64,000 nt of DNA from a bacterium (GTDB lineage: Bacteria > Lernaellota > Lernaellaia > Lernaellales > Lernaellaceae): NCBI GenBank assembly GCA_036725605.1, contig DAIMDW010000001.1, positions 545,045 through 609,044 on the forward strand. Direction: 5' to 3'. Positions within the stretch are counted from its first letter, which is position 1. Each line of letters opens with the position of its first letter. Positions 39,863-50,532 of this stretch are shown in pieces. The translations under genes were made by a program, and so were the position numbers. The notes under the pieces were generated by a model. That model was not told where the DNA came from and did not search any database. It saw only the letters and a list, made by a program, of their open reading frames with translations.

Positions 39863-41110
39863 TTACCAGGTGGCGGTGACCCTATTGCCGTAGTGGTCCG
39901 ACAGCCGCGACTCCACCTCGTCATCGTCCACCGTCAGCATGATCGGCTCGGTAAAAACACGCTCCGCCGCGAAATCCGGCGTACCGAATCCGCCGAAGAA
40001 CAGGTGGTCGATGATCGTATCGTTCGTGTCCTCGTCGTTGAGCGGATTTTCCGAACAGTATGTGCACAGATCCGGATGCTGCGCCACGTACGGATCGGTC
40101 ATCCCGGCGGCGATCAACGCGGCGTAGTTGGCCGGAAATTCATCCGGATCGCCCCCGACGCCCGGTCCGTTGTTGAAATCGCCCATCAACACCACCGGCT
40201 CGCCGTCCGACGTATCCTCGACCCAATCCAGCAACGCGTCGATCTGCGCCGCCTGTTCGGCCTCATAGGACGGATAATCGCCGTTGTAAGGCAAAATACT
40301 GATCGCCGCGGTCAGGTGCGTGCAATACAAATGAACCGGCCCGGATTCAGTCTGCACCTTGGCGTGCAGCGCCACGCGCACGGTGAGGAAGAAATCGAGT
40401 TGCAGCATTTCGGTGTCGGTCAGTTCCAGATTCGACGCCAGAATCAATCCGTTGGACCCGGTGTACGACAACGGCGGCGGATTCGGATTGGTGCAGTAAT
40501 CGACCATGTCGTCGAAGGGCTGGTCGATCTGGCTGGCCAGACACTCGATGCAGTCGAAGCCGGTCAAGATCAGCGGCAACAGGCAATTGTCGATCACGCA
40601 ATCCAGGAGACCCTCGACCTCGTTGACGTCGCAATTGGTTTCCGCACAGGAAATCAGGTTGTCCAGATCGCCGCAGCGCGCTTCGCTTTCCGGCGGCTGG
40701 TCGGCGAAATCCTCGATGCTGTTGTGCTTGTAAATGTACGGCAGCACGTCGGCCAGCGCGTCAACCATGCCGTCACGATCGTCCTCGTACCAGACCTCCT
40801 GCAGGCACAGCGCGTCGACGTCAAGTTCCGGCACCGCCTCGTAAAGCTCGGGCAGGCGCTCCTCGGCCAGCGGCACGAAACCGTAGGCCAGCCCCGCGTT
40901 GTAAGTGGCGAAGGACATCGTTGTGCTCGTCGGCGTCGTATCGTCATCGTCGTCGTCGATGTCGTCGTCGGCCGTGTCATCGTCGGTGGTATCGTCATCG
41001 ACCGGCGTGCCGTCGTCGTTGTCGTCATCGTCATCGTCGCCGCAGGCGAGCGGCATCATTGCCATTATAATAACTAAAATTAACAGAACAAAACCATGGT
41101 TAGTTTTCAT
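39863..41110 (-). CDS. Endonuclease/exonuclease/phosphatase (EEP) family lipoprotein with N-terminal D/T-rich acidic linker
   Basis: GGAGGAGG RBS upstream. Signal peptide with LAC lipobox followed by GDDDDDDNDDGTPVDDDTTDDDTADDDIDDDDDD. EEP motifs: LCLQEVW (N-terminal Mg-binding Glu), GDFNNGP, and C-terminal SDHYGN. Confidence 0.65.
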   Translation of the reverse strand: MKTNHGFVLLILVIIMAMMPLACGDDDDDDNDDGTPVDDDTTDDDTADDDIDDDDDDTTPTSTTMSFATYNAGLAYGFVPLAEERLPELYEAVPELDVDALCLQEVWYEDDRDGMVDALADVLPYIYKHNSIEDFADQPPESEARCGDLDNLISCAETNCDVNEVEGLLDCVIDNCLLPLILTGFDCIECLASQIDQPFDDMVDYCTNPNPPPLSYTGSNGLILASNLELTDTEMLQLDFFLTVRVALHAKVQTESGPVHLYCTHLTAAISILPYNGDYPSYEAEQAAQIDALLDWVEDTSDGEPVVLMGDFNNGPGVGGDPDEFPANYAALIAAGMTDPYVAQHPDLCTYCSENPLNDEDTNDTIIDHLFFGGFGTPDFAAERVFTEPIMLTVDDDEVESRLSDHYGNRVTATW

Positions 41111-41276
41111 GACCTCCTCCCATTTTTTATGTTCTTCGGATTCCTGCCCCTTTACTCTCCGACAAATCACGGCGCTTGGCAACTGGGCAAGCGAAAACGA
41201 GCTGTCCGATTCCTGTTGAAATTGAACCAGTTATGCATTAAAAATGCGCGAAACCGATCACCCGTGGAAGGGAAAA

Positions 41277-42581
41277 ATGGCGAGCGTACACACCACCGAA
41301 CGAGACTACTACATCGATTTCGCCAAGGGCATCGCGGTGTTCATCATGGCCTGGGGCCACACCATGTATTACACGCAGTGGCTGCCCCATAACACCGTCG
41401 AATACGCCTTTCTATGGGCTTTTTCCGAACTGAGCATGCCGATCTTCGTCCTGGCCTCGGGGATGAACGTGGTCAGCCAGGTCAAGCGGATGAAGGCCGA
41501 TTCGTCGTGGCGGCCCACCCTGGCCTTCCTCGGCTCGATCGCCTGGCTGTTTATGCTCGGTTTCATTTACAACATCAACCGGCGCAGCCTGGGCCTGATG
41601 GACCTGTTCCACATGGTGGCCATGGGCACCGCGCTGGCGTTCATCGTGTCGCGTCGCGAGTGGCCGACCTGGTCGATCATCGGCCTTTCGGCGGGCATCT
41701 TCGGCGTTTCGGCCGTACTGAGCCTCGACGCCATTCCGATCAGCACGGAAATTCTGAAAAACTTCGACTACACGCGTTTCCTCAAACGGCCGAGCGATCC
41801 GTTTATCGCGCAGGCGGTGACCAACATCACCATGGGCGAATTGAAAAAGAAGGCGGTGCTCGAATTTCCCTTGTGGCGGCGTATCTTGCACATCCACTTC
41901 GCGCTGATTCCCTGGGCGGGATTTTTCCTGACGGGCGTGGTGCTCAAGCGCCTGCGCAACACCATGTGGGAATGGGTGCTGGTCGGCGTTTCCCTCGCTC
42001 TGTTCGTGGTAACGTTCCTCACGCTGCCCACCTTCGTGCCCGTCGACGATTTCGGCTTCTACCAGCGCAGCCGCGCCGATTACATCGCGCGTTTGCTGTT
42101 CACCGGCGTGCTGGCGATGGTCTTGCTGTCACGTTACTACCACCGGGCCAAAGGGGCTTTCGCCAAAGCGGCGGAACTGGCCGGGCGCGAATCGTTCATC
42201 TTTTTCGTCTGCCACTGGGGCGTGATCTGGATCTCCGCCAGCTTCTCGAACATCTTCTTGCACAACTTCAATTACTGGAAGGTCTGGGTGATCCAGATTC
42301 CGCTGAACCTGTTCCTGTCGTATAAATTTACGCAACTCATGGCCTGGTGGCGCGACAAGACGATCATCAATCCGGGCTATGCGAAAACCTGGCTGAGCAT
42401 CCTGATCATCTGCGCCCTGATCGCCGTGCGGGCCGACGCGCGCGGCAACATCTTTTTACTTAAAGTATTCAGCTTCCCCGCTTCGGTCGCCGTGGCGATG
42501 GTCTGGCCGGTCGGCCGCAACTTCATTCGCGGCCTGGTCTATCGTCGGCAGATCAACGCCGCTAAAAAGGCCGCCGAATAA
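41277..42581 (+). CDS. Polytopic membrane protein, putative acyltransferase-3/DUF1624-like, paralog A
   Basis: At least 10 TM helices, N-terminal ERDYYIDFAKGIAVFIMAWGH. Tandem duplicate of the next gene. Confidence 0.45.
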   Translation: MASVHTTERDYYIDFAKGIAVFIMAWGHTMYYTQWLPHNTVEYAFLWAFSELSMPIFVLASGMNVVSQVKRMKADSSWRPTLAFLGSIAWLFMLGFIYNINRRSLGLMDLFHMVAMGTALAFIVSRREWPTWSIIGLSAGIFGVSAVLSLDAIPISTEILKNFDYTRFLKRPSDPFIAQAVTNITMGELKKKAVLEFPLWRRILHIHFALIPWAGFFLTGVVLKRLRNTMWEWVLVGVSLALFVVTFLTLPTFVPVDDFGFYQRSRADYIARLLFTGVLAMVLLSRYYHRAKGAFAKAAELAGRESFIFFVCHWGVIWISASFSNIFLHNFNYWKVWVIQIPLNLFLSYKFTQLMAWWRDKTIINPGYAKTWLSILIICALIAVRADARGNIFLLKVFSFPASVAVAMVWPVGRNFIRGLVYRRQINAAKKAAE

Positions 42582-42672
42582 CCTGAAGTGTATCCAGCCC
42601 GCTTGTAAGTGATTGCATTAGTGATCCTTTTTGTGTAATCCTTCCCGAAATTTCTATGAGATGGAAGGATTC

Positions 42673-44001
42673 ATGGCTGCCGTTCACACTACCCAACGCG
42701 ACTACTATATCGACTACGCCAAGGGCGTCGCGGTTTTCTTCATGGCCTGGGGCCATACGATGTACTTCACGCAGTGGCTGCCGCATCAGACGCTCCATTA
42801 CGCCTTGCTCTGGGCGCTCACCGAATTGAGCATGCCGATCTTCGTGCTGGCCTCGGGCATCAACGTGGTCAACCAGGTCGAGCGGATGAAAAGCGACACC
42901 TCCGCCCGCCCCACCATCGCTTTTCTGGGGTCGATCGCCTGGCTCTTCCTGCTCGGCTTCGTCTACTGCATCAACCGGCGCAGCCTGGGCCTGATGGACC
43001 TGTTCCACACCGTCGCCATGGGCACCGCGCTGGCGTATATCGTCACGCGCCGCCAGTGGCCGACCTGGGCGATCGCCGCCGTGGCCTTCGGCATTTTCAG
43101 CGTGGGCGCGGTGTTGAGCGTCGACGCCATCCCGGTCAGCAGCGATCTGCTGAGGAACTTCGACTTCTCGGGCTTCCGGAATCGCCCGCAGAATCCGTTC
43201 TTCGCCGACGCGGTGACCTACCTCACCATCGGCGAGATCAAACGCCGGGCGGTGCTCGAATACCCGCTGTGGCGGCGTATTCTGCACGTTCACTTCGCGT
43301 TGATTCCCTGGTCGGGCTACTTCCTGCTGGGCGTGTTGCTCAAGCGCATCGAGCGCACCAAGTGGGAATACGTGCTGCTGGGCGGCACCTTCTTTTTGTT
43401 CGCCCTGACCTTCTTCGCCTTTCCGCGTTTCGTGCCGCTCGACGATTTCGGTTTCTTCCTGCGCAGCAAGCCCGATTACACCGCCCGGCACATTTTCACC
43501 GGCCCGCTGATGATGATTCTGCTGGCGCGCTATTACAAACAGGGCGTCTCCAAGCTGGCCGTGGCGGCGGAGCTGGCCGGCAAGGAATCGTTTCTTTTCT
43601 TCGTCTGTCACTGGCTGGTCATCTGGAGTTCGGCGACGATCTCCAATATCTTCCTGCACAACATCAGCTATTGGTACGTGTGGGCGGTGCAGATTCCGCT
43701 GAACATTTACCTTGCTTACAAACTCACTCAGCTCATGGCGCTCTGGCGCGACCGTACGATCAACAAGCGCTATTACATTCCAATGTGGTTCGGCATCATG
43801 TTCATCGGCGGATTCCTGGCTTTGCGGGCCGACGCACACGGCAACATCTTCCTGATGAAGGTGTTGAGCTTCCCCGCGTCGATCGCCGTGGCGATGGTCT
43901 GGCCGATCGGACGCAATTTCATTCGCGCCCTGGTCTATCGCAAGCAGATTGCCGCGATGAAAAAAGCGGCCAAAGCGAAAAAGGCGGCCGAAGCCGCCTG
44001 A
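42673..44001 (+). CDS. Polytopic membrane protein, putative acyltransferase-3/DUF1624-like, paralog B
   Basis: About 60% identical to paralog A over the full length (QRDYYIDYAKGVAVFFMAWGH...). Confidence 0.45.
   Translation: MAAVHTTQRDYYIDYAKGVAVFFMAWGHTMYFTQWLPHQTLHYALLWALTELSMPIFVLASGINVVNQVERMKSDTSARPTIAFLGSIAWLFLLGFVYCINRRSLGLMDLFHTVAMGTALAYIVTRRQWPTWAIAAVAFGIFSVGAVLSVDAIPVSSDLLRNFDFSGFRNRPQNPFFADAVTYLTIGEIKRRAVLEYPLWRRILHVHFALIPWSGYFLLGVLLKRIERTKWEYVLLGGTFFLFALTFFAFPRFVPLDDFGFFLRSKPDYTARHIFTGPLMMILLARYYKQGVSKLAVAAELAGKESFLFFVCHWLVIWSSATISNIFLHNISYWYVWAVQIPLNIYLAYKLTQLMALWRDRTINKRYYIPMWFGIMFIGGFLALRADAHGNIFLMKVLSFPASIAVAMVWPIGRNFIRALVYRKQIAAMKKAAKAKKAAEAA
43977..44001 (+). repeat. Direct repeat copy 1 (GAAAAAGGCGGCCGAAGCCGCCTGA), comprising the last 8 codons plus stop of paralog B
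   Basis: Exact 25-nt identity with 44194..44218. Contains a GGCGGC-cgaa-GCCGCC hairpin. Confidence 0.8.
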
Positions 44002-44056
44002 TGGACCGGGCACAACCAAAATGATTGTCCCTTTTCCGGATGTTGTATCCGCGATT

Positions 44057-44155
44057 CGGTGGCACTGATACGCCGAACGCAGTGAGGCTTATCAGTGCCT
44101 GCCATGAACACTGATAAACTCGTTCGCCTTGCTCGCTCGTGTATCAGTGCCACCG
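44057..44155. repeat. About 100-nt nested inverted-repeat element (candidate MITE core or structured sRNA)
   Basis: Three inverted-repeat pairs form one long interrupted stem: GGTGGCACTGATAC/GTATCAGTGCCACC, CCGAACG/CGTTCG, and GCTTATCAGTG/CACTGATAAAC. Confidence 0.45.
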
Positions 44156-44193
44156 CGTCTTGGTCAGGCTGTTTCGAGGAAACAACCAAAAAT

Positions 44194-44218
44194 GAAAAAG
44201 GCGGCCGAAGCCGCCTGA
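44194..44218 (+). repeat. Direct repeat copy 2 (GAAAAAGGCGGCCGAAGCCGCCTGA)
   Basis: Exact duplicate of 43977..44001. On the minus strand it reads TCAGGCGGCttcgGCCGCCTTTTTC, a canonical terminator placed 4 nt after the stop of the ArfB-like gene. Confidence 0.8.
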
Positions 44219-44222
44219 TTCA

Positions 44223-44576
44223 TCACCAAGCGCCGTCCGCCGGCTCGCGACGGACGGCTTTCTTGGCCGCTTGTTTTTTCTTCTCCTCCAACCGCTTTTC
44301 CTTGGCGGCGCGCGACGGCTTGGTCGGCTTGCGCTCGACCGGCACGAAGTTCAACTCTTCGAGCTTCGCCGCCAGGCGCTCGTACGCCACGTCCAGGTTG
44401 CGTGCCTGGCTGCGGCGTTCGACGGCCGTCACGATCACGCCGGACGGCAGATGGCGCAGCCGCACGGCCGTTTCCCGCTTGTTGCGATGCTGACCGCCCG
44501 GGCCGGTCGCCTTGAAAAACTCCACCTCGACTTCGCGTTCCAGCGTTTCACGGTCGGTGGCAAAGGGTTCGTTCAT
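44223..44576 (-). CDS. Peptidyl-tRNA hydrolase ArfB-like (RF-1 domain, GGQ motif) protein
   Basis: ATGPGGQHRNKRETAVRLRH GGQ loop and a basic C-terminal tail (KPTKPSRAAKEKRLEEKKKQAAKKA). Its ATG overlaps the stop of the upstream gene (TAATG). Confidence 0.65.
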   Translation of the reverse strand: MNEPFATDRETLEREVEVEFFKATGPGGQHRNKRETAVRLRHLPSGVIVTAVERRSQARNLDVAYERLAAKLEELNFVPVERKPTKPSRAAKEKRLEEKKKQAAKKAVRREPADGAW

Positions 44577-46711
44577 TATTTCGTTTCGCCATCCCAAGCG
44601 AAGACGAAGTCCAGTTCGGTATCGCCTTCGATCAAAATGTTGTTGCAATACTCCAGGTGGTCGTCGACGTTGATCATGGCCAGGTTCATCGAGCCTTCGT
44701 TCACCGGCAGACTGTAATAGCCCGTTGCATCCCAAATGATCGAAGTGATGAACATGAACGGTTCGCTTTGGTCGGAACTGGTGATGTGTTCCAGCGTGTT
44801 GGTTCCCATGATCGTCGTCGGCACCGCCGGGGTCACGCCGTCGCTCATGAAAATGTTGCCGGTCAGATGATGCATCGTCAGATTGAAATTCTGCGTCTGT
44901 TTGTCTTCGCTAAGGGTGATTTCGGCGAACTCCTCGTCCTCGATAAAGAAGTAGGTGTCAAAGCCGATGATGGCGTCCATCGACATGGTCAGCGTGTAGC
45001 TGCCCGGCAAGGCGGTGACCGAATAGCTGCCGTCCGAGTCCATTTCGCCGTAATACTCGATGCCGTACTGATCGACCAGATAAAGGTCGCCGAACACGAA
45101 CAGCGAACTGAAGAACAACAGCGGCGTCGTGTCGTTGATCGTGATCGTGCCTTCCAGCGTGGCCGTGGTGCCCACGAACTGGTAATCATGCGTCAGGGTC
45201 TCGCTCACGACAACGCCCGCTTCGCGTTCGCGAACCAGGTCTTCCTCGTAATACGGATTGTAGTACAGGTCATACGTGCCCGCCGGCAGCATCAAGTTAT
45301 AGACGCCGGTCTCGTCGGTGTAGTTGTACGCCTCGAAGGTCGCGCCGTCGGCCACCGATACGGCCTTGACCAGCACATCCTCCAGCGTCGCGCCCTCCGG
45401 ATCGGTGATCGTGCCGGTGACTTCGATCAACGGAACCTCGATCAACACATTCTCCTTGGTCGGTGCGGTCACTGTAATCTGCTGCGTGTCGTCGAAATAC
45501 TTGGTGTACTGATACACATTGTAAGAAATGGATCGATAATCGATGACCACATCGTAGGTGCCCGCCGGCAGCACGATGTCCACGAAGCTGTATCCGCCCT
45601 CGAATTCGGCGACATAGAAATCGCTGCCCGCGGTGAAGGTCATCGAGCCGCTGGCGCCCAAGCCCAGATCGTAGTACCAGGACGAGCCGTCGTTGGTCAA
45701 TTTCACCCGCGTTTCATAGCCGGTGACGGGGAACTGGAAGTCGTGATTCATGTGCGTGGTCACGGCCACCGGGTTCTCGCTCGCCTGCGGCAATGACGTG
45801 CTCAACAACGGCGAATAGCGGAACGTATAATTGTCGAAAGCTGGTAAAAAGACCATGTAGGCGTCGGCTTCCATGGTGAATTCGACTTCCAGGGCAAAGG
45901 TCGTCGGATCCTCTTTAACCTCATCGCCGCCGGTGATCAGAATGGTTGTTCCTTCCACCGGATTTTCTTCCGGATCGGTAATCGAACCATCAATTGAATA
46001 CAGTGTCAGGGCGATGTCCTGCGTCACCGTTTCGGCGCCGACCACCAGGTCCTCGACAATGTAGGAGTTGCGGTAGGTCCAGAAGAAGTCCTCGCCGTCG
46101 TAAACCAGAATTTCGATTTCGACGTTGTAGGTGCCCGCCATCACGTACGGTGCGCGATAGGAACCGTCGGTGTCGACGTTGGCCAGGAAGGAATCGCCTT
46201 TGCTTTCGCTCCAGAATTTCAGCATCACATCGGCTTGGTTGTAGGCGGCGAAATACGTCGTGATGGGCGTTTCGTTGACCGTCACCGCGCCGGTGACAAG
46301 CACGCCCTCGGGCTCGTGCAAAGTCGTATCGTCGTCGCCGGTGTCATCGTCGGTCGTATCGTCGTCGGTGGTGTCATCGTCGGTGGTGTCGTCGTCGGTC
46401 GTATCGTCGTCGGTTGTGTCATCGTCGGTGGTGTCATCGTCCGTGGTGTCATCGTCCGTGGTGTCGTCATCGGTCGTGTCATCATCGGTTGTATCATCAT
46501 CCGTTGTATCGTCGTCGGTCGTGTCGTCGTCCGTGGTGTCGTCATCAGTGGTGTCGTCGTCATCGTCGTCGCTCGCGTCGTCGTCGGCGTCATCGTCATC
46601 GGACGGGCAACGCGGACAGTCGTCGTCATCGTCGTCGCAGCCGAAAGCGCCCGCCAACAGCGGAATCAACAACAATGACAAACAAAGCATCAGGTAAACC
46701 GATTTCTTCAT
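44576..46711 (-). CDS. Large lipoprotein with N-terminal (DDDTT)n repeat linker and multiple carboxypeptidase-regulatory/Cna-B-like beta-sandwich domains
   Basis: AAGGAG RBS. Signal peptide ending LAGAFGC, then CDDDDDDCPRCP and about 17 DDDTT units. Downstream are repeated GTYxV/GSYTL strand motifs in roughly 90-aa modules. Confidence 0.55.
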   Translation of the reverse strand: MKKSVYLMLCLSLLLIPLLAGAFGCDDDDDDCPRCPSDDDDADDDASDDDDDDTTDDDTTDDDTTDDDTTDDDTTDDDTTDDDTTDDDTTDDDTTDDDTTDDDTTDDDTTDDDTTDDDTTDDDTGDDDTTLHEPEGVLVTGAVTVNETPITTYFAAYNQADVMLKFWSESKGDSFLANVDTDGSYRAPYVMAGTYNVEIEILVYDGEDFFWTYRNSYIVEDLVVGAETVTQDIALTLYSIDGSITDPEENPVEGTTILITGGDEVKEDPTTFALEVEFTMEADAYMVFLPAFDNYTFRYSPLLSTSLPQASENPVAVTTHMNHDFQFPVTGYETRVKLTNDGSSWYYDLGLGASGSMTFTAGSDFYVAEFEGGYSFVDIVLPAGTYDVVIDYRSISYNVYQYTKYFDDTQQITVTAPTKENVLIEVPLIEVTGTITDPEGATLEDVLVKAVSVADGATFEAYNYTDETGVYNLMLPAGTYDLYYNPYYEEDLVREREAGVVVSETLTHDYQFVGTTATLEGTITINDTTPLLFFSSLFVFGDLYLVDQYGIEYYGEMDSDGSYSVTALPGSYTLTMSMDAIIGFDTYFFIEDEEFAEITLSEDKQTQNFNLTMHHLTGNIFMSDGVTPAVPTTIMGTNTLEHITSSDQSEPFMFITSIIWDATGYYSLPVNEGSMNLAMINVDDHLEYCNNILIEGDTELDFVFAWDGETK
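46325..46575 (-). repeat. 15-nt tandem coding repeat encoding DDDTT, about 17 copies (plus strand shows GGTGGTGTCATCGTC units)
   Basis: Near-perfect periodicity is visible in the sequence. All three plus-strand frames give low-complexity ORFs, which are artefacts. Confidence 0.85.
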
Positions 46712-46763
46712 CTTCCCACTCCTTGCGAAGGTTTCCAAAAAATCTGGTTGGCCGTATTATTAT

Positions 46764-48467
46764 TTATTTATTGATGATAATCAAATCGATGCGCGTGTTT
46801 TTCAATTGCCCGTTCGGCGTGTCGTCGGCCGTGATCGGCACCGTGTCGCCCATCCCTTCGGCGGTCAGACGCGCCGCATCGATTTTTTGGCTCAGCAGAT
46901 AATTGCGCACCGCCTGCGCCCGCGCTTCGCTCAACGCCTGCGCCTCGGTCACCGCCGAGGAAACGTGCCCCTCGATCCGCACGGCCACGGTTGGATATTC
47001 CTGCAGCAATGCCGCCAGATCGGCGAGCATCGTTTTGTCGTAATCGGACAGGTTCGAGCCGCGCGGACCGTCGAAGGTCAGCGCCGCCGGCAGCACGAAC
47101 TGCCCCTCGAACATCATCACGCCGCTCGGCTTGCGCGCCAGCACCACTTCGGGCACGCCGTCGTCGTCGAGGTACCCGTTAAAGGTTTCCGGCTCCAGCG
47201 GCGCGCCGTCGAGGTTATCGGGCACCTGGTCCTCGTCGCTGTCGACGCTCAGCGGATTGGTGCGCAGCTCGCCGACTTCCTGCGCGTCCGAAAGCGTGTC
47301 GCCGTCGCTGTCGATCTGGCGCGGATTGGTGCCGTACAGACGCACTTCGGCCGCGTCCGACAAGCCGTCGCCGTCGCTGTCGGCCTGCGTGGGATCGGTG
47401 CCGTATTGTTTGACCTCGATGCCGTCGGACAAGCCGTCGCCGTCGCTGTCCGGGTTGGCCGGGTCGGTTTTGAACAGCCGCGTTTCGTCGTAGTTGGTCA
47501 GGCCGTCGCGGTCGGAGTCGTCGGTGCGGCTGTCGGCCCCGGCCATGGCCGAAACGGCCTTCGGCTCACGATCGAGTTCCGGCCAGGTGACGCCGATGGC
47601 CGCAAAGCCCCGATACACCGGATTGCCGATGCCCGCGTTGATGCCCATGCCGCCGCCGGCGGTGAAATGCATCGGTCCGGCAAACGCCCGCACGGCGACC
47701 AGCGCCTCGGCGGGGAATTCCGCATCCAGATTTTCCACCTGGTAATCGACCGTGCGCCCGTAAATCTCGGCCAGAATATCCAGGTGCTTGTGCGCCATGA
47801 TGCTCACGCCCGCACCGACCTCCGCCCGGCCGGACGGATCGAAGCCGCTTTCGTCGTCGCCCCGGTTTCCCATATACAGATAACCGCCATTAACGACGAT
47901 GTTCACGCGCTCGAACCGCTTGTCCACCGCCAGGCGCACGCCCGCGTTGGTCGCCTCCGTGCCGAAGTAATGATCCGGATCACCGCTGGGAAATTCGCCC
48001 AGGCCGATCAGCGCGATGCCGATCGAACCGGGCCGGTTTCGCAACAAACGGAACTTCATCGCGCCGCGCAGATCGCCCAGGCCCGCGCCGCTTTCATCGC
48101 CCGTGTCGGGGAAATCCAGGCCCGTGTCGATGTCCATGTCCTTGCCGGAAACCGAGTTGTAGCTGCCGGCGAAACCGAACTCGGCGAAATTGAACAGACC
48201 GATCGAGCCGCGCAATTCGGCGGTCAGCATCTGCTCGACGATCTTGAATTCCTCGTCGTTGCCGGCGAACTCGATGGTAAACGGATCCTGGGCGAAGTTG
48301 GCCGTCGTCGCGAAGCCGAATTGTCCGAAGGCCGGCACGTTGGAAGAATACAACGTCACCAGGTTGTCCACGCCGATCGCCGGCTGAAAGTTTTGCACGT
48401 CGATCGCCCAGGCGGCCGAACCGCCCGCTATCGTCAACAACGCCAGTATGATGATTAGTTTCTTCAC
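46764..48467 (-). CDS. OmpA-family outer-membrane protein with thrombospondin type-3 (Ca-binding) repeats (GTG start)
   Basis: AAAGGGGA RBS plus GTG. Signal peptide, N-terminal beta-barrel-like region, six D-x-D-x-DG-x-x-D TSP3 repeats (DSDGDGLSDGIE...), and a C-terminal OmpA_C domain (TVAVRIEGHVSS...NRRIDLIII). Confidence 0.75.
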   Translation of the reverse strand: MKKLIIILALLTIAGGSAAWAIDVQNFQPAIGVDNLVTLYSSNVPAFGQFGFATTANFAQDPFTIEFAGNDEEFKIVEQMLTAELRGSIGLFNFAEFGFAGSYNSVSGKDMDIDTGLDFPDTGDESGAGLGDLRGAMKFRLLRNRPGSIGIALIGLGEFPSGDPDHYFGTEATNAGVRLAVDKRFERVNIVVNGGYLYMGNRGDDESGFDPSGRAEVGAGVSIMAHKHLDILAEIYGRTVDYQVENLDAEFPAEALVAVRAFAGPMHFTAGGGMGINAGIGNPVYRGFAAIGVTWPELDREPKAVSAMAGADSRTDDSDRDGLTNYDETRLFKTDPANPDSDGDGLSDGIEVKQYGTDPTQADSDGDGLSDAAEVRLYGTNPRQIDSDGDTLSDAQEVGELRTNPLSVDSDEDQVPDNLDGAPLEPETFNGYLDDDGVPEVVLARKPSGVMMFEGQFVLPAALTFDGPRGSNLSDYDKTMLADLAALLQEYPTVAVRIEGHVSSAVTEAQALSEARAQAVRNYLLSQKIDAARLTAEGMGDTVPITADDTPNGQLKNTRIDLIIINK

Positions 48468-48486
48468 GCCAGTCCCCTTTTCCGGC

Positions 48487-49452
48487 TCACTCGCACGGAT
48501 CGTCCGGAATCTTGAAACCGTAGGCTTCCAACTCGGCAACCTCGAAACTGTACTTGCCGGTGAATACCGCGTTCGGCCGGTTGCTTTCATGCAGGAAAAG
48601 AAACACCCAGCGCCCTTCCACCGGAGCATCTTCCAGATCGATGCTGTTGTTTTGGATGTCCAGGTCCGCCGCCTGCTCGACGGTTTCCAACAACACGTAA
48701 CCGTAGTCGGCCGGGTCCTCGACTCCCAGTTCATGAGGCATCTTGGCCACGTTGTCGTTGGTGTTCAGATAAACGTCGAACTTGGTGCCGTACTCGTAAT
48801 CGCCGGACAGGGCATCGCGCCCCCAATGGATTTCGACGCGGTTGATCCAGTATTCCTGCTGCATCTTCACGCCGATCCACTGCGGCTGGTAATCGGCGCC
48901 CTCATTGATCGGATTGGTCGTGTTTTCCCACCAGGTGAGATAGTTGCCGTCGATCGCCTTGTCGGCGGTGTTGTTCGGCTTGGTGGAACTGGTACTACTG
49001 ACCTCGACCGTGGAACTCAACGAATAATTGTCGGTGTGTTGCTCGATGACGACCGATGAACTGTCGCTGCGATTGCCCGCGGCGTCCTCGGCGACGAACT
49101 GCAAGGTGTTCACCACCTCCGGCTGCAACGCGACCTTCACGCAAAATTCGCCGTCGGCGTTCGTCTGCGCTTCCGCGTCGGCCAGCCCGCCGGTCACGTA
49201 GATCAACGATCCGGCTTCGGCGGCGCCGTGAATGCTCTGATACGACAATCCCGTGGGGCTGGTCGGATCGTCCACCTCCGGCGCATCGGGCGGCGTGGTG
49301 TCGGGCGGACCGTCATCATCATCGTCGGGCGCGGCGGTGTCGTCATCATCGGCGATGGGGGCATCGACTGTGGAAGAAGTGTCGCAAAAGAAAAGCGGCG
49401 TGCACATCAGCAACACAAAAACCAGCAGAAGGATAGACCGGCCTGCGTGCAT
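48487..49452 (-). CDS. Secreted protein with acidic D/P/T linker, Ig-like domain and F5/8 type C (discoidin) domain
   Basis: Signal peptide, then DDDDTAAPDDDDDGPPDTTPP. C-terminal AIDGNYLTWWEN...WIGV...I.RVEIHW is typical of discoidin domains. Confidence 0.55.
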   Translation of the reverse strand: MHAGRSILLLVFVLLMCTPLFFCDTSSTVDAPIADDDDTAAPDDDDDGPPDTTPPDAPEVDDPTSPTGLSYQSIHGAAEAGSLIYVTGGLADAEAQTNADGEFCVKVALQPEVVNTLQFVAEDAAGNRSDSSSVVIEQHTDNYSLSSTVEVSSTSSTKPNNTADKAIDGNYLTWWENTTNPINEGADYQPQWIGVKMQQEYWINRVEIHWGRDALSGDYEYGTKFDVYLNTNDNVAKMPHELGVEDPADYGYVLLETVEQAADLDIQNNSIDLEDAPVEGRWVFLFLHESNRPNAVFTGKYSFEVAELEAYGFKIPDDPCE

Positions 49453-49581
49453 GCTCTCCCTCCTGATTGCGGCTCTGGTTCATTAACGCGGAATTATATT
49501 TCGATGGTAGGGCCAACCCTTGAGGGCGTCAAGGTTCTCTTGCGGTAACGCGACCGAATTTATGCAAATTAATATTGTCGT

Positions 49582-50532
49582 TCAGCCCAATTCGGGCGGC
49601 TCGGCGATCGATATGTGATGGTCGCGGCAGAAGGTCGGCCAGCCGATGACCGTGCCGCCCATGAAGGTCATGCGCACCGCCTCGGCCGGGCAATTGTTGA
49701 TGCACCCGCAACAGAGGATGCACCGTTCGCGGTCGATCAGCAGTTCCGCCGGATCGATCGCCCCCACCGGGCATGTCGCCGCGCACGTACCGCACTTGAT
49801 GCACACGTCGTGATCGACGTGGTGTTCGCCGGTCAATTTTTTCATCCACCACATCGGCTTGAAAGCCGTGAGCATCCCCGAAAAATCGCACTCGTGATCG
49901 ATCGCCGTGACCTGATTGGCGCGCACGTGCTCCAGCAGGTCGCGGGCGAATTGCCGACAGCGTTCGTAGGTTTCCGTATCGGGCAGATGCTTGAAGCGCA
50001 ACGTGCGTTTCGCGCCCGAGCCGGTCAGCGAAGGGGCGAAGGTGTTCATGTTGCTGAACGCGCTCATGCCCACCGGCACGCCGCCCTTGGCCGTCAGCAG
50101 TTCCACCAGATTCCAGCCGGTGTTGATCGGATTGGAACCCTTGTTGCCGTAGGTCACCCACGCGGCGACCGGCACTCGCGACAGCGACGGCAGCGTGGTC
50201 AGCCGGTCAACGACGTTGGGCGGCACGTCCATGTAATGCACCGGCACACCGATCACCACCAGGTCGAAATTCGCCGCCGTGCTCAAATCGAAATCGCGTA
50301 GCGGCGCGGCGGTTGTTTGCAGCCCTTCGGTTTCAAAGGTCTTGGCCAGCAAGCGCCCCAGACGCTGCGTGTGGCCGGTCTGGCCGTACCAGAGCACCAG
50401 CGCCGATTGCGGATCGTTGCTGCGCATCTTCACCGGCGCGATCGACCGGGCGTTGCACGTGTCGGCGCAACCGGCCGCTCCGCCCACCAGCGCGGCGCCG
50501 GCCCCGACGAGAAACTGACGACGATCAAGCAT
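49582..50532 (-). CDS. Tat-exported flavodoxin-like / 2x[4Fe-4S] ferredoxin fusion protein
   Basis: Twin-arginine motif RRQFLVGAGA. Flavodoxin-like LVLWYGQTGHT. Two ferredoxin Cys clusters: CIKCGTCAATCP and CILCCGCINNCP. Confidence 0.6.
   Translation of the reverse strand: MLDRRQFLVGAGAALVGGAAGCADTCNARSIAPVKMRSNDPQSALVLWYGQTGHTQRLGRLLAKTFETEGLQTTAAPLRDFDLSTAANFDLVVIGVPVHYMDVPPNVVDRLTTLPSLSRVPVAAWVTYGNKGSNPINTGWNLVELLTAKGGVPVGMSAFSNMNTFAPSLTGSGAKRTLRFKHLPDTETYERCRQFARDLLEHVRANQVTAIDHECDFSGMLTAFKPMWWMKKLTGEHHVDHDVCIKCGTCAATCPVGAIDPAELLIDRERCILCCGCINNCPAEAVRMTFMGGTVIGWPTFCRDHHISIAEPPELG

Follow-up and report, generated by a model that had tools for sequence, protein, structure and literature searches.

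The window analysed here, a 64-kb stretch of bacterial DNA, contains a long hairpin flanked by two exact direct repeats between the ends of two convergent genes. What kind of element is this hairpin, and how did it come to lie between two copies of one sequence? Comparison with related genomes and metagenome contigs indicates that the hairpin is probably one copy of a REP-doublet (REPIN-type) family of non-autonomous repeats of an uncultured bacterium, and that it arrived in a 191-nt insertion that duplicated a shared terminator. The element is of a known kind, combined with an unusually long target duplication. The nearest named homologues of the host are Myxococcota metagenome-assembled genomes (MAGs).

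Organization of the locus

The hairpin and its surroundings are composed of the following features:

42661..44001, plus strand: gene B, membrane acyltransferase-3/HGSNAT-like protein (gene calls on the identical contig L001, weak Pfam hits)
43977..44002, no strand: direct repeat copy 1, the original target (26 nt; single-copy homologue in the empty sites of L040, L038 and L044)
44003..44056, no strand: f1, left non-repeat part of the insert (54 nt; two small hairpins)
44057..44155, plus strand: 99-nt REP doublet (REPIN-like), the conserved multi-copy unit (copies, alignment, folding)
44156..44193, no strand: f2, right non-repeat part of the insert (38 nt; one small hairpin)
44194..44219, no strand: direct repeat copy 2, the duplicated target (26 nt; repeat and terminator scoring)
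44223..44576, minus strand: arfB, RF-1 domain peptidyl-tRNA hydrolase with a GGQ motif (gene calls, Pfam)

Gene B is preceded by its tandem paralogue, gene A (41244-42581), with which it has 75.7% nucleotide identity. The start of gene B as called is at 42661, and an exact look-up from the TTG start gave no match. The convergent arfB closes a minus-strand operon; the gene before it codes for 720 aa, and the stop of that gene overlaps the arfB start.

Exactly two instances of the 25-mer GAAAAAGGCGGCCGAAGCCGCCTGA are present in the window (43977-44001 and 44194-44218), as reported in the preliminary description of the locus; no 25-mer match was found in shuffled sequences with three mismatches tolerated. 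Extended by one base, the repeat remains exact and is 26 nt long. Copy 1 encodes the last eight codons and the stop of gene B, in agreement with the earlier view that the repeat duplicates the 3' end of this gene. Each copy is scored as an intrinsic terminator when read on the minus strand (AGGCGGCTTCGGCCGCCT and then a T-run), which bears out another part of the same description. The predicted terminator stems span 43982-43999 in copy 1 and 44199-44216 in copy 2. Copy 2 is the arfB-proximal terminator and is separated from the arfB stop by 4 nt.

An eight-codon mini-ORF had been noticed at copy 2. It exists at 44192-44218, where copy 2 is preceded by AT. The mini-ORF is an incidental by-product of the insertion junction: the end of the insert contributes the first two bases of its ATG, and the first base of the duplicated 26-mer is the third.

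Empty sites in sister lineages

Relatives that lack the insertion were sought, and three sister lineages display an empty site with a single copy of the 26-mer each: L040-43 (89.5-92.4% nucleotide identity over L040), L038/39/35 (~88%) and L044/45 (ArfB 84% identical). The junction in all three is ...GAAAAAGGCGGCCGA(A/G)GCCGCCTGATTCA..., and the stops of gene B and arfB are 4 nt apart (1 nt in L044/45). By BLAST, L040 is matched by both halves of the window, 40467-44002 and 44194-50000, which overlap on it by exactly 26 nt. The genome of L040 carries the repeat family at other sites (L028, L029). With single-copy empty sites in three sister lineages, it follows that the window lineage gained 217 nt, of which 191 nt are new and 26 nt duplicate the target.

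Ancestrally, the two genes converged on a single 26-nt hairpin that was both the arfB terminator and the last codons of gene B. The window lineage then acquired, at this hairpin, a 191-nt segment with one doublet and a second copy of the 26-nt target. Because of the duplication, arfB kept a stop-proximal terminator, and gene B kept its C-terminus, stop and antisense hairpin. The insertion may have survived because, without a second copy of the hairpin, the two genes could not both have stayed undamaged.

Structure of the hairpin

The preliminary description had placed a nested hairpin at 44057..44155, and its inverted repeats are indeed present. The outer arms, 44057-71 and 44141-55, are perfect inverted repeats of 15 nt, and the inner arms are at 44089-97 and 44109-17. 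Four copies of CACTGATA alternate in orientation along the hairpin, which can be divided into two REP units and a spacer:

44058..44097, plus strand: left REP unit (40 nt), GGTGG head, stem CACTGATAC / TTATCAGTG, 17-nt loop
44098..44108, no strand: apical loop (spacer) of the doublet, the sole hypervariable part among the copies (alignment A1)
44109..44154, minus strand: right REP unit (46 nt), minus-strand reading GGTGGCACTGATACACGAGCGAGCAAGGCGAACGAGTTTATCAGTG
Doublet termini: CGGTGGCACTGATAC
Repeat-family units: GGTGGCACTGATA

The folding z-score of the 99-nt hairpin as DNA is -8.0, and those of a 256-nt region as RNA are -7.9 and -8.8 for the two strands. The doublet folds into a long hairpin at -54.8 kcal/mol, versus -35.2 kcal/mol for two separate hairpins. 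In single-stranded DNA or RNA, either form can arise, the long hairpin or the pair of small ones. The consensus hairpin contains 36 pairs.

Both units, 40 and 46 nt long, are palindromic with stems of 9-11 bp, and they are inverted so that their GGTGG heads point outward. The head is found at both ends of every doublet aligned and is invariant at four of its five positions; position 3 is T in 21 of 22 units. Across the 22 units, 89% of the stem cells are paired. Two stem pairs differ on both sides between unit subtypes (A-U to U-A and A-U to G-C, seven sequences each). Covariance had been proposed as a check on the hairpin, and the alignment of the 99-nt family contains no compensatory change for any pair. 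The mean column identity of this alignment (A1) is ~91%, with columns 42-50, which belong to the loop, as the only variable ones. The family may be conserved because it spread recently or through gene conversion, and not because of selection.

Copies of the element elsewhere

The 99-nt doublet occurs at at least 22 other, distinct sites with unrelated flanks, in metagenome contigs and in two MAGs of related uncultured bacteria, so the search for further copies suggested earlier was productive. Matches to the outer arms were found at 18 metagenome loci and 13 loci of GTDB genomes, and 28 of these 31 loci have the full 99 nt or a 90-nt deletion form. The fragmented MAG CTOTU18531 contains 10 intact copies on nine contigs, and the metagenome of sample Ga0116164 contains at least nine copies spread over at least seven large contigs. 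Diverged copies, half copies and tandem arrays were added by nhmmer. REP units are also present as singlets and mixed doublets, and they recombine with a second unit type. The window itself contains only one copy; the number per genome is probably modest, perhaps tens and not hundreds.

The copies occupy either strand of their carrier contigs. None of 22 copies is spanned by a plausible coding frame, and nine of the 22 have an intrinsic terminator within 60 nt. One orthologous pair from sister lineages (L012/L031) has a copy at the same site in both. The doublet is tandemly duplicated together with its flanks at L024 (period 218) and L020.

The sequences around the doublet behave differently from the doublet itself. 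No match to f1 was found in the window or in any of the loci compared, and f2 matches only L003, which has the same flank. Scans of viral contigs for the element and for f1 returned chance matches or nothing. The 26-nt repeat is 54 and 38 nt away from the element ends at the window locus. What is conserved and mobile is the REP doublet of 99 nt, and not all of the 192 nt between the repeats.

Exact flanking repeats at L022, L024, L020, L034 and L017 correspond to a recurring neighbour motif, tandem arrays or short matches of chance length. A 19-nt direct repeat at L022 was considered as a second long target duplication and was rejected, as it is a recurring AT-rich module that adjoins several copies. 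The DAO gene was rejected as a second pair of filled and empty sites: there the sister lineage has the element too, with a difference of one whole REP unit. In a relative with 80% identity, the spacer at the DAO locus is unalignable and lacks a REP. L003 has the appearance of a strain whose left neighbour differs, with the breakpoint exactly at the left end of the hairpin. The hairpin of L003 matches the DAO-locus copy (L008) without a difference, with a 32-nt run common to the two, and an assembly chimera at k=31 is the simplest explanation of L003; we set it aside and did not use it as evidence. Comparison of the loci indicates that the long duplication is specific to the window locus and is not a property of the family.

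Origin of the insertion

One of the two readings offered in the preliminary description was a miniature mobile element inserted with target duplication. Mobility and duplication are upheld by the copies and the empty sites; the type of the element (REP/REPIN-like) and its unit (99 instead of 192 nt) had to be revised. By analogy to REPINs, the family might have been spread in trans by a single-copy HUH/Y1 transposase (RAYT) acting on a folded single strand. Such a RAYT (HUH/Y1, PF01797), encoded in the same genome and typically flanked by its REPs, is the defining partner of REPINs. No RAYT, IS200/IS605 or other HUH transposase was detected by tblastn or by an HUH/Y-motif scan in the ~300 kb searched, which comprise the window and all the loci. 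The tblastn queries were E. coli RAYT, IS200 TnpA and IS608 TnpA. A 219-aa ORF in L036 gave a weak tblastn match, and was rejected as a RAYT: it has no Pfam domain and belongs to a different organism.

A simple model in which the element transposed and generated a target-site duplication does not fit the sequences. The 191-nt insert exceeds the conserved unit of the family, and none of the other copies examined has a target duplication verified against an empty site. The long duplication may have arisen by template switching or staggered breaks to the left and right of the target hairpin.

The alternative that survives best is that the 191-nt block was copied into the locus by template switching, break repair or gene conversion at the hairpin-forming terminator, with the doublet as a passive passenger and the 26-nt repeat as a repair footprint. 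We regard this as possible, though not probable. The excess of the insert over the conserved unit, its unique flanks and the lack of verifiable target duplications at other copies are in line with block copying, as is a short direct repeat inside the insert, ACAACCAAAA(A)TGA, at 44013-44025 and 44183-44196. Tandem duplications of the doublet with its flanks, as at L024 and L020, are known for REPINs (PMC3116915), and long-target-duplication insertions without a transposase are documented (PMC2853133). Against it, a donor locus was not found in the small part of the genome that was covered. Block copying explains the arrival of the block but not the identity of the hairpin, so it complements the REP-doublet explanation and does not replace it.

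We also speculate, with little confidence, that the family, or the composite of f1, doublet and f2, may insert in a hairpin-directed manner, by cuts on both sides of a target stem-loop that duplicate whole terminators. If true, this mode, not described for REPs or REPINs, would allow damage-free entry into tight convergent gene pairs.

MITEs derive from insertion sequences with the same ends and produce a fixed short target duplication. A classical MITE, that is, a deletion derivative of a DDE-type insertion sequence with 15-nt terminal inverted repeats and cut-and-paste movement, is an unlikely identity for the doublet. The perfect 15-nt termini, the size of ~100 nt and the dispersal in many copies would all suit it. 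Furthermore, in 17 of 22 copies the GTGG...CCAC core has a CG dinucleotide on each side, which can be read as a 2-bp duplication. However, CG is self-complementary, so an extension of the palindrome explains it equally well, and the deviating copies lack the co-variation expected of a duplication. Apart from this ambiguous CG, the flanks at the element ends of the 22 copies have nothing in common beyond 2 bp. The two palindromic units of the doublet are autonomous and are also found alone and recombined, which is the behaviour of REPs and BIMEs, and at the loci examined there is neither an insertion sequence with these termini nor a DDE transposase beside any copy.

The preliminary description had also raised the possibility of a terminator-embedded structured RNA. 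An sRNA or cis-regulatory RNA gene between the two minus-strand terminators, which could delimit a transcript of ~200 nt, would agree with the very stable fold (z about -8), and is nevertheless very improbable. The region has no Rfam match at the gathering score; its best hits at a permissive E-value, CsrC (19.4 bits, threshold 61) and sX6 (17.9, threshold 40), are weak and owe their scores to the terminator hairpin. The locus, which is missing from the sister lineages, yielded no sigma-70-like promoter. The same 99 nt recur at the unrelated sites counted above, on either contig strand, with no compensatory changes within the family, and the apical loop, usually the functional part of an sRNA hairpin, is their least conserved part. 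The four alternately pairing segments were also considered as a leader-peptide or attenuator system; this was rejected, because the upstream 15-codon ORF lies in f1, a segment unique to the window locus. The Rfam scan of the whole window at the gathering score identified an unrelated c-di-GMP riboswitch.

A one-off local duplication by slippage, with a chance palindrome and no link to mobile DNA, would account for the single copy in the 64-kb window, but can be dismissed: the many copies at other sites refute it, and so do the 191 nt that the empty sites lack.

Comparison with known systems

REP units are short imperfect palindromes of ~20-60 nt. REP and REPIN insertion is IS200/IS605-like and leaves no target-site duplication at the element ends, and classical REPs are present in hundreds of copies. 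The doublet family resembles REPINs in its inverted palindromic units, which are ~70-85 nt apart and give a ~100-nt hairpin, in the high conservation of the units next to a variable spacer, and in the alternative two-hairpin fold. Further similarities are the extragenic, often terminator-proximal position, the occurrence of singlets, mixed clusters and tandem arrays with flanks, and element ends without target duplication. The family differs from typical REPs in the longer loops of its units (17-23 nt) and in a copy number that is apparently in the tens, not hundreds. The window copy, in an uncultured host, is unlike a REPIN in that it brought 92 nt of additional sequence and duplicated 26 nt of its target. 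REPINs have been described as doublets with a less conserved spacer, with alternative hairpin and 'clover' folds and with tandem arrays that include flanks (PMC3116915).

Like the GTAG-tagged repeats, the units of the family are short stem-loops with a conserved tag at one end, here G-GTGG in every copy examined and in 21 of 22 aligned units. The GTAG-type tags that define REPs include a GTGG variant, present in most GTAG-20 elements of Opitutus terrae, and degenerate tags have been noted (PMC3733652). The stems of GTAG-tagged repeats are mostly 6-9 bp and the units 20-40 bp long (Di Nocera et al. 2013, PMC3733652), whereas the stems here are 9-11 bp, the loops are large, and doublets dominate.

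The similarity to MITEs such as Correia, ERIC and RUP is limited to size, terminal inverted repeats, intergenic dispersal and possible effects on neighbouring transcripts; the element here is modular, built of REP units, and has no fixed short target duplication.

Insertions with long target duplications in which the insert has no transposase form a documented class (Furuta et al. 2010, PMC2853133), and IS1630 of Mycoplasma fermentans is cited there as duplicating 19-26 bp. The window locus is comparable, as its filled and empty sites reveal a direct target duplication of 26 bp. It differs in that the insert is 191 nt of non-coding DNA with a REP doublet and not an insertion sequence or gene cassette, and no enzyme is implicated.

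Implications

The locus provides a clean before-and-after record of a REP-type repeat entering a genome. Before the insertion there was one hairpin, both terminator and coding sequence; afterwards the hairpin is duplicated, with one copy on each side of the insert. The present function of the doublet, if any, may be that of a generic REP: hairpins in 3' untranslated regions that act as a transcription barrier or mRNA stabilizer between convergent genes. For annotation, neither the hairpin nor the eight-codon ORF should be called an sRNA or a gene, and the repeat can mis-join contigs, as L003 illustrates.

The family extends REP-doublet repeats to an uncultured lineage represented by MAGs only, and the locus shows how an insertion can be tolerated even between genes that are almost contiguous. 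If the long duplication is mechanistic and not accidental, it would bear on the question of how REPINs insert.

Insertion into a shared terminator

The convergent genes gene B and arfB are separated by a 191-nt insert that is flanked by two direct repeats and contains a 99-nt hairpin doublet.

42661–44001, plus strand: gene B, Acyl_transf_3/HGSNAT-like membrane protein, with its 3′ end formed by repeat copy 1
44057–44155: hairpin doublet
44223–44576, minus strand: arfB, RF-1 domain, with its stop 4 nt from repeat copy 2

The sequence GAAAAAGGCGGCCGAAGCCGCCTGA is present exactly at 43977–44001 and 44194–44218 and nowhere else in the window, and shuffled sequence gave zero matches to it with up to three mismatches tolerated. 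The two exact repeats, the first ending gene B, are as the preliminary description had them; the 25-nt match is exact, but the full extent of the repeat is 26 nt. Both 26-mers score as intrinsic terminators on the minus strand, in agreement with the terminator assigned to each copy.

Gene B (42661–44001) and its tandem paralogue (41244–42581; both plus strand, 75.7% nucleotide identity) encode membrane acyltransferase-3/HGSNAT-like proteins with Lys/Ala-rich tails, and an extra 18-nt internal repeat (KKAAKA) is specific to gene B. Two large ORFs on the minus strand, 44576–46738, which is translationally coupled to arfB, and 39863–41182, are predicted to be secreted or lipoprotein-like and contain long stretches of low complexity rich in Asp and Thr (DDDTTDDD...). 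The window also contains a c-di-GMP-I-GGC riboswitch aptamer (RF03167; 61346–61423, minus strand; 63.3 bits, above the gathering score).

Corresponding gene pairs of sister lineages were recovered by exact-protein look-ups of ArfB and gene B homologues. Four loci (L040–L043) have an empty site, ...GCGAAAAAGGCGGCCGAAGCCGCCTGATTCATCACC.... The flanks of L040, from MAG CTOTU29523, which harbors the repeat family elsewhere (L028, L029), share 92.4% and 89.5% nucleotide identity with those of the window, and its ArfB is 97% identical. The same empty site, with one loop change, occurs in L038, L039, and L035 (~88% nucleotide identity). L044/L045, whose ArfB shares 84% identity, have a homologous hairpin over which the convergent gene stops, leaving 1 nt to arfB. 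Therefore, the empty site is the ancestral state. When the window halves (ending at 44002 and starting at 44194) are aligned to L040, the alignments overlap by 26 nt, the signature of a target duplication. The window lineage gained 217 nt, composed of 191 new nucleotides and the duplicated 26-mer; this allele is identical in L001 and L002 (JGI and ENA). The ancestral hairpin served both as the arfB terminator and as the last five codons and stop of gene B. After the insertion, each gene has a separate hairpin copy.

Structure of the doublet

At 44057–44155, a perfect inverted repeat of 15 nt encloses inner arms to form a nested hairpin, in which the CACTGATA core occurs four times in alternating orientation. 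The predicted folding is far better than that of shuffles, with z-scores of −7.9 and −8.8 for the two strands of the 256-nt region as RNA and −8.0 for the 99-nt element as DNA. No second structure of this kind is present in the 64-kb window. The doublet is built of two units, each palindromic by itself.

Left unit: GGTGG-CACTGATAC-(17 nt)-TTATCAGTG
Right unit, opposite strand: GGTGG-CACTGATAC-(23 nt)-TTTATCAGTG

Since either half is palindromic alone, the doublet has alternative folds, one long hairpin (−54.8 kcal/mol) or two hairpins (−35.2 kcal/mol).

Alignment of 21 distinct copies, in which the outer arms were imposed by the search pattern and the inner arms and mid-regions were left free, has a mean column identity of 91%. 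The apical loop of 9–11 nt is the sole hypervariable stretch. The consensus structure is a single hairpin of 36 pairs; the covariance check proposed earlier gave a negative result, with no compensatory change at any pair within the family. Across 22 units of two subtypes, four of the five GGTGG head positions are invariant, T occupies position 3 in 21, and 89% of stem cells are paired. The second subtype (seven units) has two stem pairs altered on both sides; the support from these changes is modest, because they probably represent one evolutionary event.

Units are also found as singlets or in combination with units of a second type, GGTGGCRCTGTTTTGC...GCATAACAGTG. This variant unit, which differs from that of the window by compensatory stem changes, builds a second doublet family (L017 933–1029; L018/L027 5668–5760; L026 7840–7935) and singlets (L007/L033, L011/L030, L014/L023, L019).

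Copies in other genomes

A scan for the outer arms separated by a 50–80-nt gap identified 18 loci in JGI metagenome contigs and 13 in GTDB species genomes. The whole 99-nt element, beyond mere arms, is present in 28 of the 31, among unrelated flanks; this count includes a 90-nt copy with a 9-nt deletion (L012). The fragmented MAG 'bacterium CTOTU18531' contains 10 copies on 9 contigs, CTOTU29523 two, and metagenome Ga0116164 has copies on at least seven large contigs. Together with the empty sites and the 26-nt overlap, the multi-copy family supports and sharpens the initial proposal of a mobile element with target duplication. L032 and L006 were rejected as family members, their interiors being unrelated or chance, as were both viral-contig matches (chance or unrelated inside).

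An 80-nt relative of the doublet in a Myxococcales MAG (CAYNVS01; L025 3028–3107) has the same four CACTGATAA cores with different sequence between them, which suggests that the unit type predates the genus-level group of the window. For the host of the window family, the nearest named homologues of a neighboring gene are from Myxococcota MAGs (≤76% identity), which makes its placement tentative.

Profile search of the collected loci added diverged and half copies, copies lying side by side, and tandem arrays whose repeats take in flanking sequence: L020 (1–403) has three copies spaced by 27 nt, and L024 (885–1201) has two identical ones with a period of 218. None of 22 copies is plausibly spanned by a coding frame, and two long frames crossing a copy were dismissed as antisense-type artefacts. 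An intrinsic terminator lies within 60 nt of 9 of the 22 copies, five of which have the T-run 9–16 nt upstream of the left end.

Exactly one unit distinguishes the sister lineages at the DAO locus: between L008 (6305–6402) and L048/L051 (DAO–DUF4434 spacer), the doublets differ by one whole extra REP unit and its spacer, ~63 nt, and a downstream half copy differs by a 13-nt indel. Single units are thus both gained and lost. In L003 (Logan SRR5007228; 1328–1430), the DAO-locus flank and doublet are joined to the arfB flank via a 32-nt identical run shared by the two copies. L003 is probably an assembly chimera; the alternative is a real recombination between two copies.

An AT-rich 19-mer, GTTATAAATTGATGKAATA, forms the loop of a separate hairpin module and is found repeatedly at 1–39 nt from doublet copies (L022 4266–4284 and 4457–4475; L009 6047–6065; L008 6566–6584; L017 1064–1082 and 7130–7148). 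It is absent from the window; in the repeat clusters it may play an accessory part, much as IHF sites do in the BIMEs of E. coli.

Relationship to REP sequences and route of insertion

REP/REPIN sequences are inverted doublets of tagged palindromic units with a variable spacer and two alternative folds; they are extragenic and terminator-proximal, occur as singlets, mixed clusters, and tandem arrays with flanks, show no duplication at element ends, and are inherited vertically (PMC3116915, PMC3337134, PMC3733652). The window family resembles them in its tagged inverted doublets, variable loop, two folds, extragenic and often terminator-proximal position, singlets, mixed unit combinations, and tandem arrays with flanks. 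The element ends have no duplication and share no flank beyond an ambiguous CG. Vertical inheritance is seen in L012 and L031, orthologous loci (90.6% nucleotide identity) with a copy at the same site. GTGG is a recorded variant of the GTAG tag (PMC3733652). A cognate RAYT is a further defining feature of REPINs; tblastn with RAYT, IS200, and IS608 transposases as queries and a HUH/Y-motif scan detected none in ~300 kb, a small fraction of the genome. The window hairpin is probably a member of a REP-doublet (REPIN-like) repeat family.

The absence of a fixed duplication and the modular build from units make a classical MITE the less likely identity. No Rfam family covers the element, no promoter was found, and sister lineages lack the locus; in addition, copies occur in numerous unrelated settings, and conservation is lowest in the loop. 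The sRNA-like or terminator-embedded structured RNA reading is therefore unlikely.

Simple transposition of the REP doublet fits poorly: the insert (191 nt) exceeds the conserved family unit (99–103 nt), its flanks are unmatched, and no comparable duplication could be demonstrated at another copy. The 54-nt left and 38-nt right insert flanks each contain small hairpins and have no match among the collected loci or viral contigs. A second short direct repeat, ACAACCAAAA(A)TGA, is located at 44013–44025 and 44183–44196. At the other copies, no flanking direct repeat is demonstrable as a target duplication. The 19-nt flanking repeat of L022 is the recurring AT-rich module, found beside several copies; the remaining exact matches between flanks reflect tandem arrays in L024 and L020 and are otherwise of chance length (10–12 nt). 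For none of these sites is an empty allele available for comparison.

Therefore, we only infer how the block arrived. It could have entered through staggered breaks flanking the target hairpin or through replication template switching at this hairpin, and selection would retain only events leaving gene B and arfB whole. Insertions that lack a transposase yet duplicate long targets have been documented as a class, and the duplications made by IS1630 measure 19–26 bp (PMC2853133). What is unusual here is limited to the 26-nt duplication, combined with 92 nt of additional sequence. The locus thus offers a well-documented case in which a probable REP-doublet repeat of an uncultured lineage arrived in an insert and the terminator common to both genes was duplicated.
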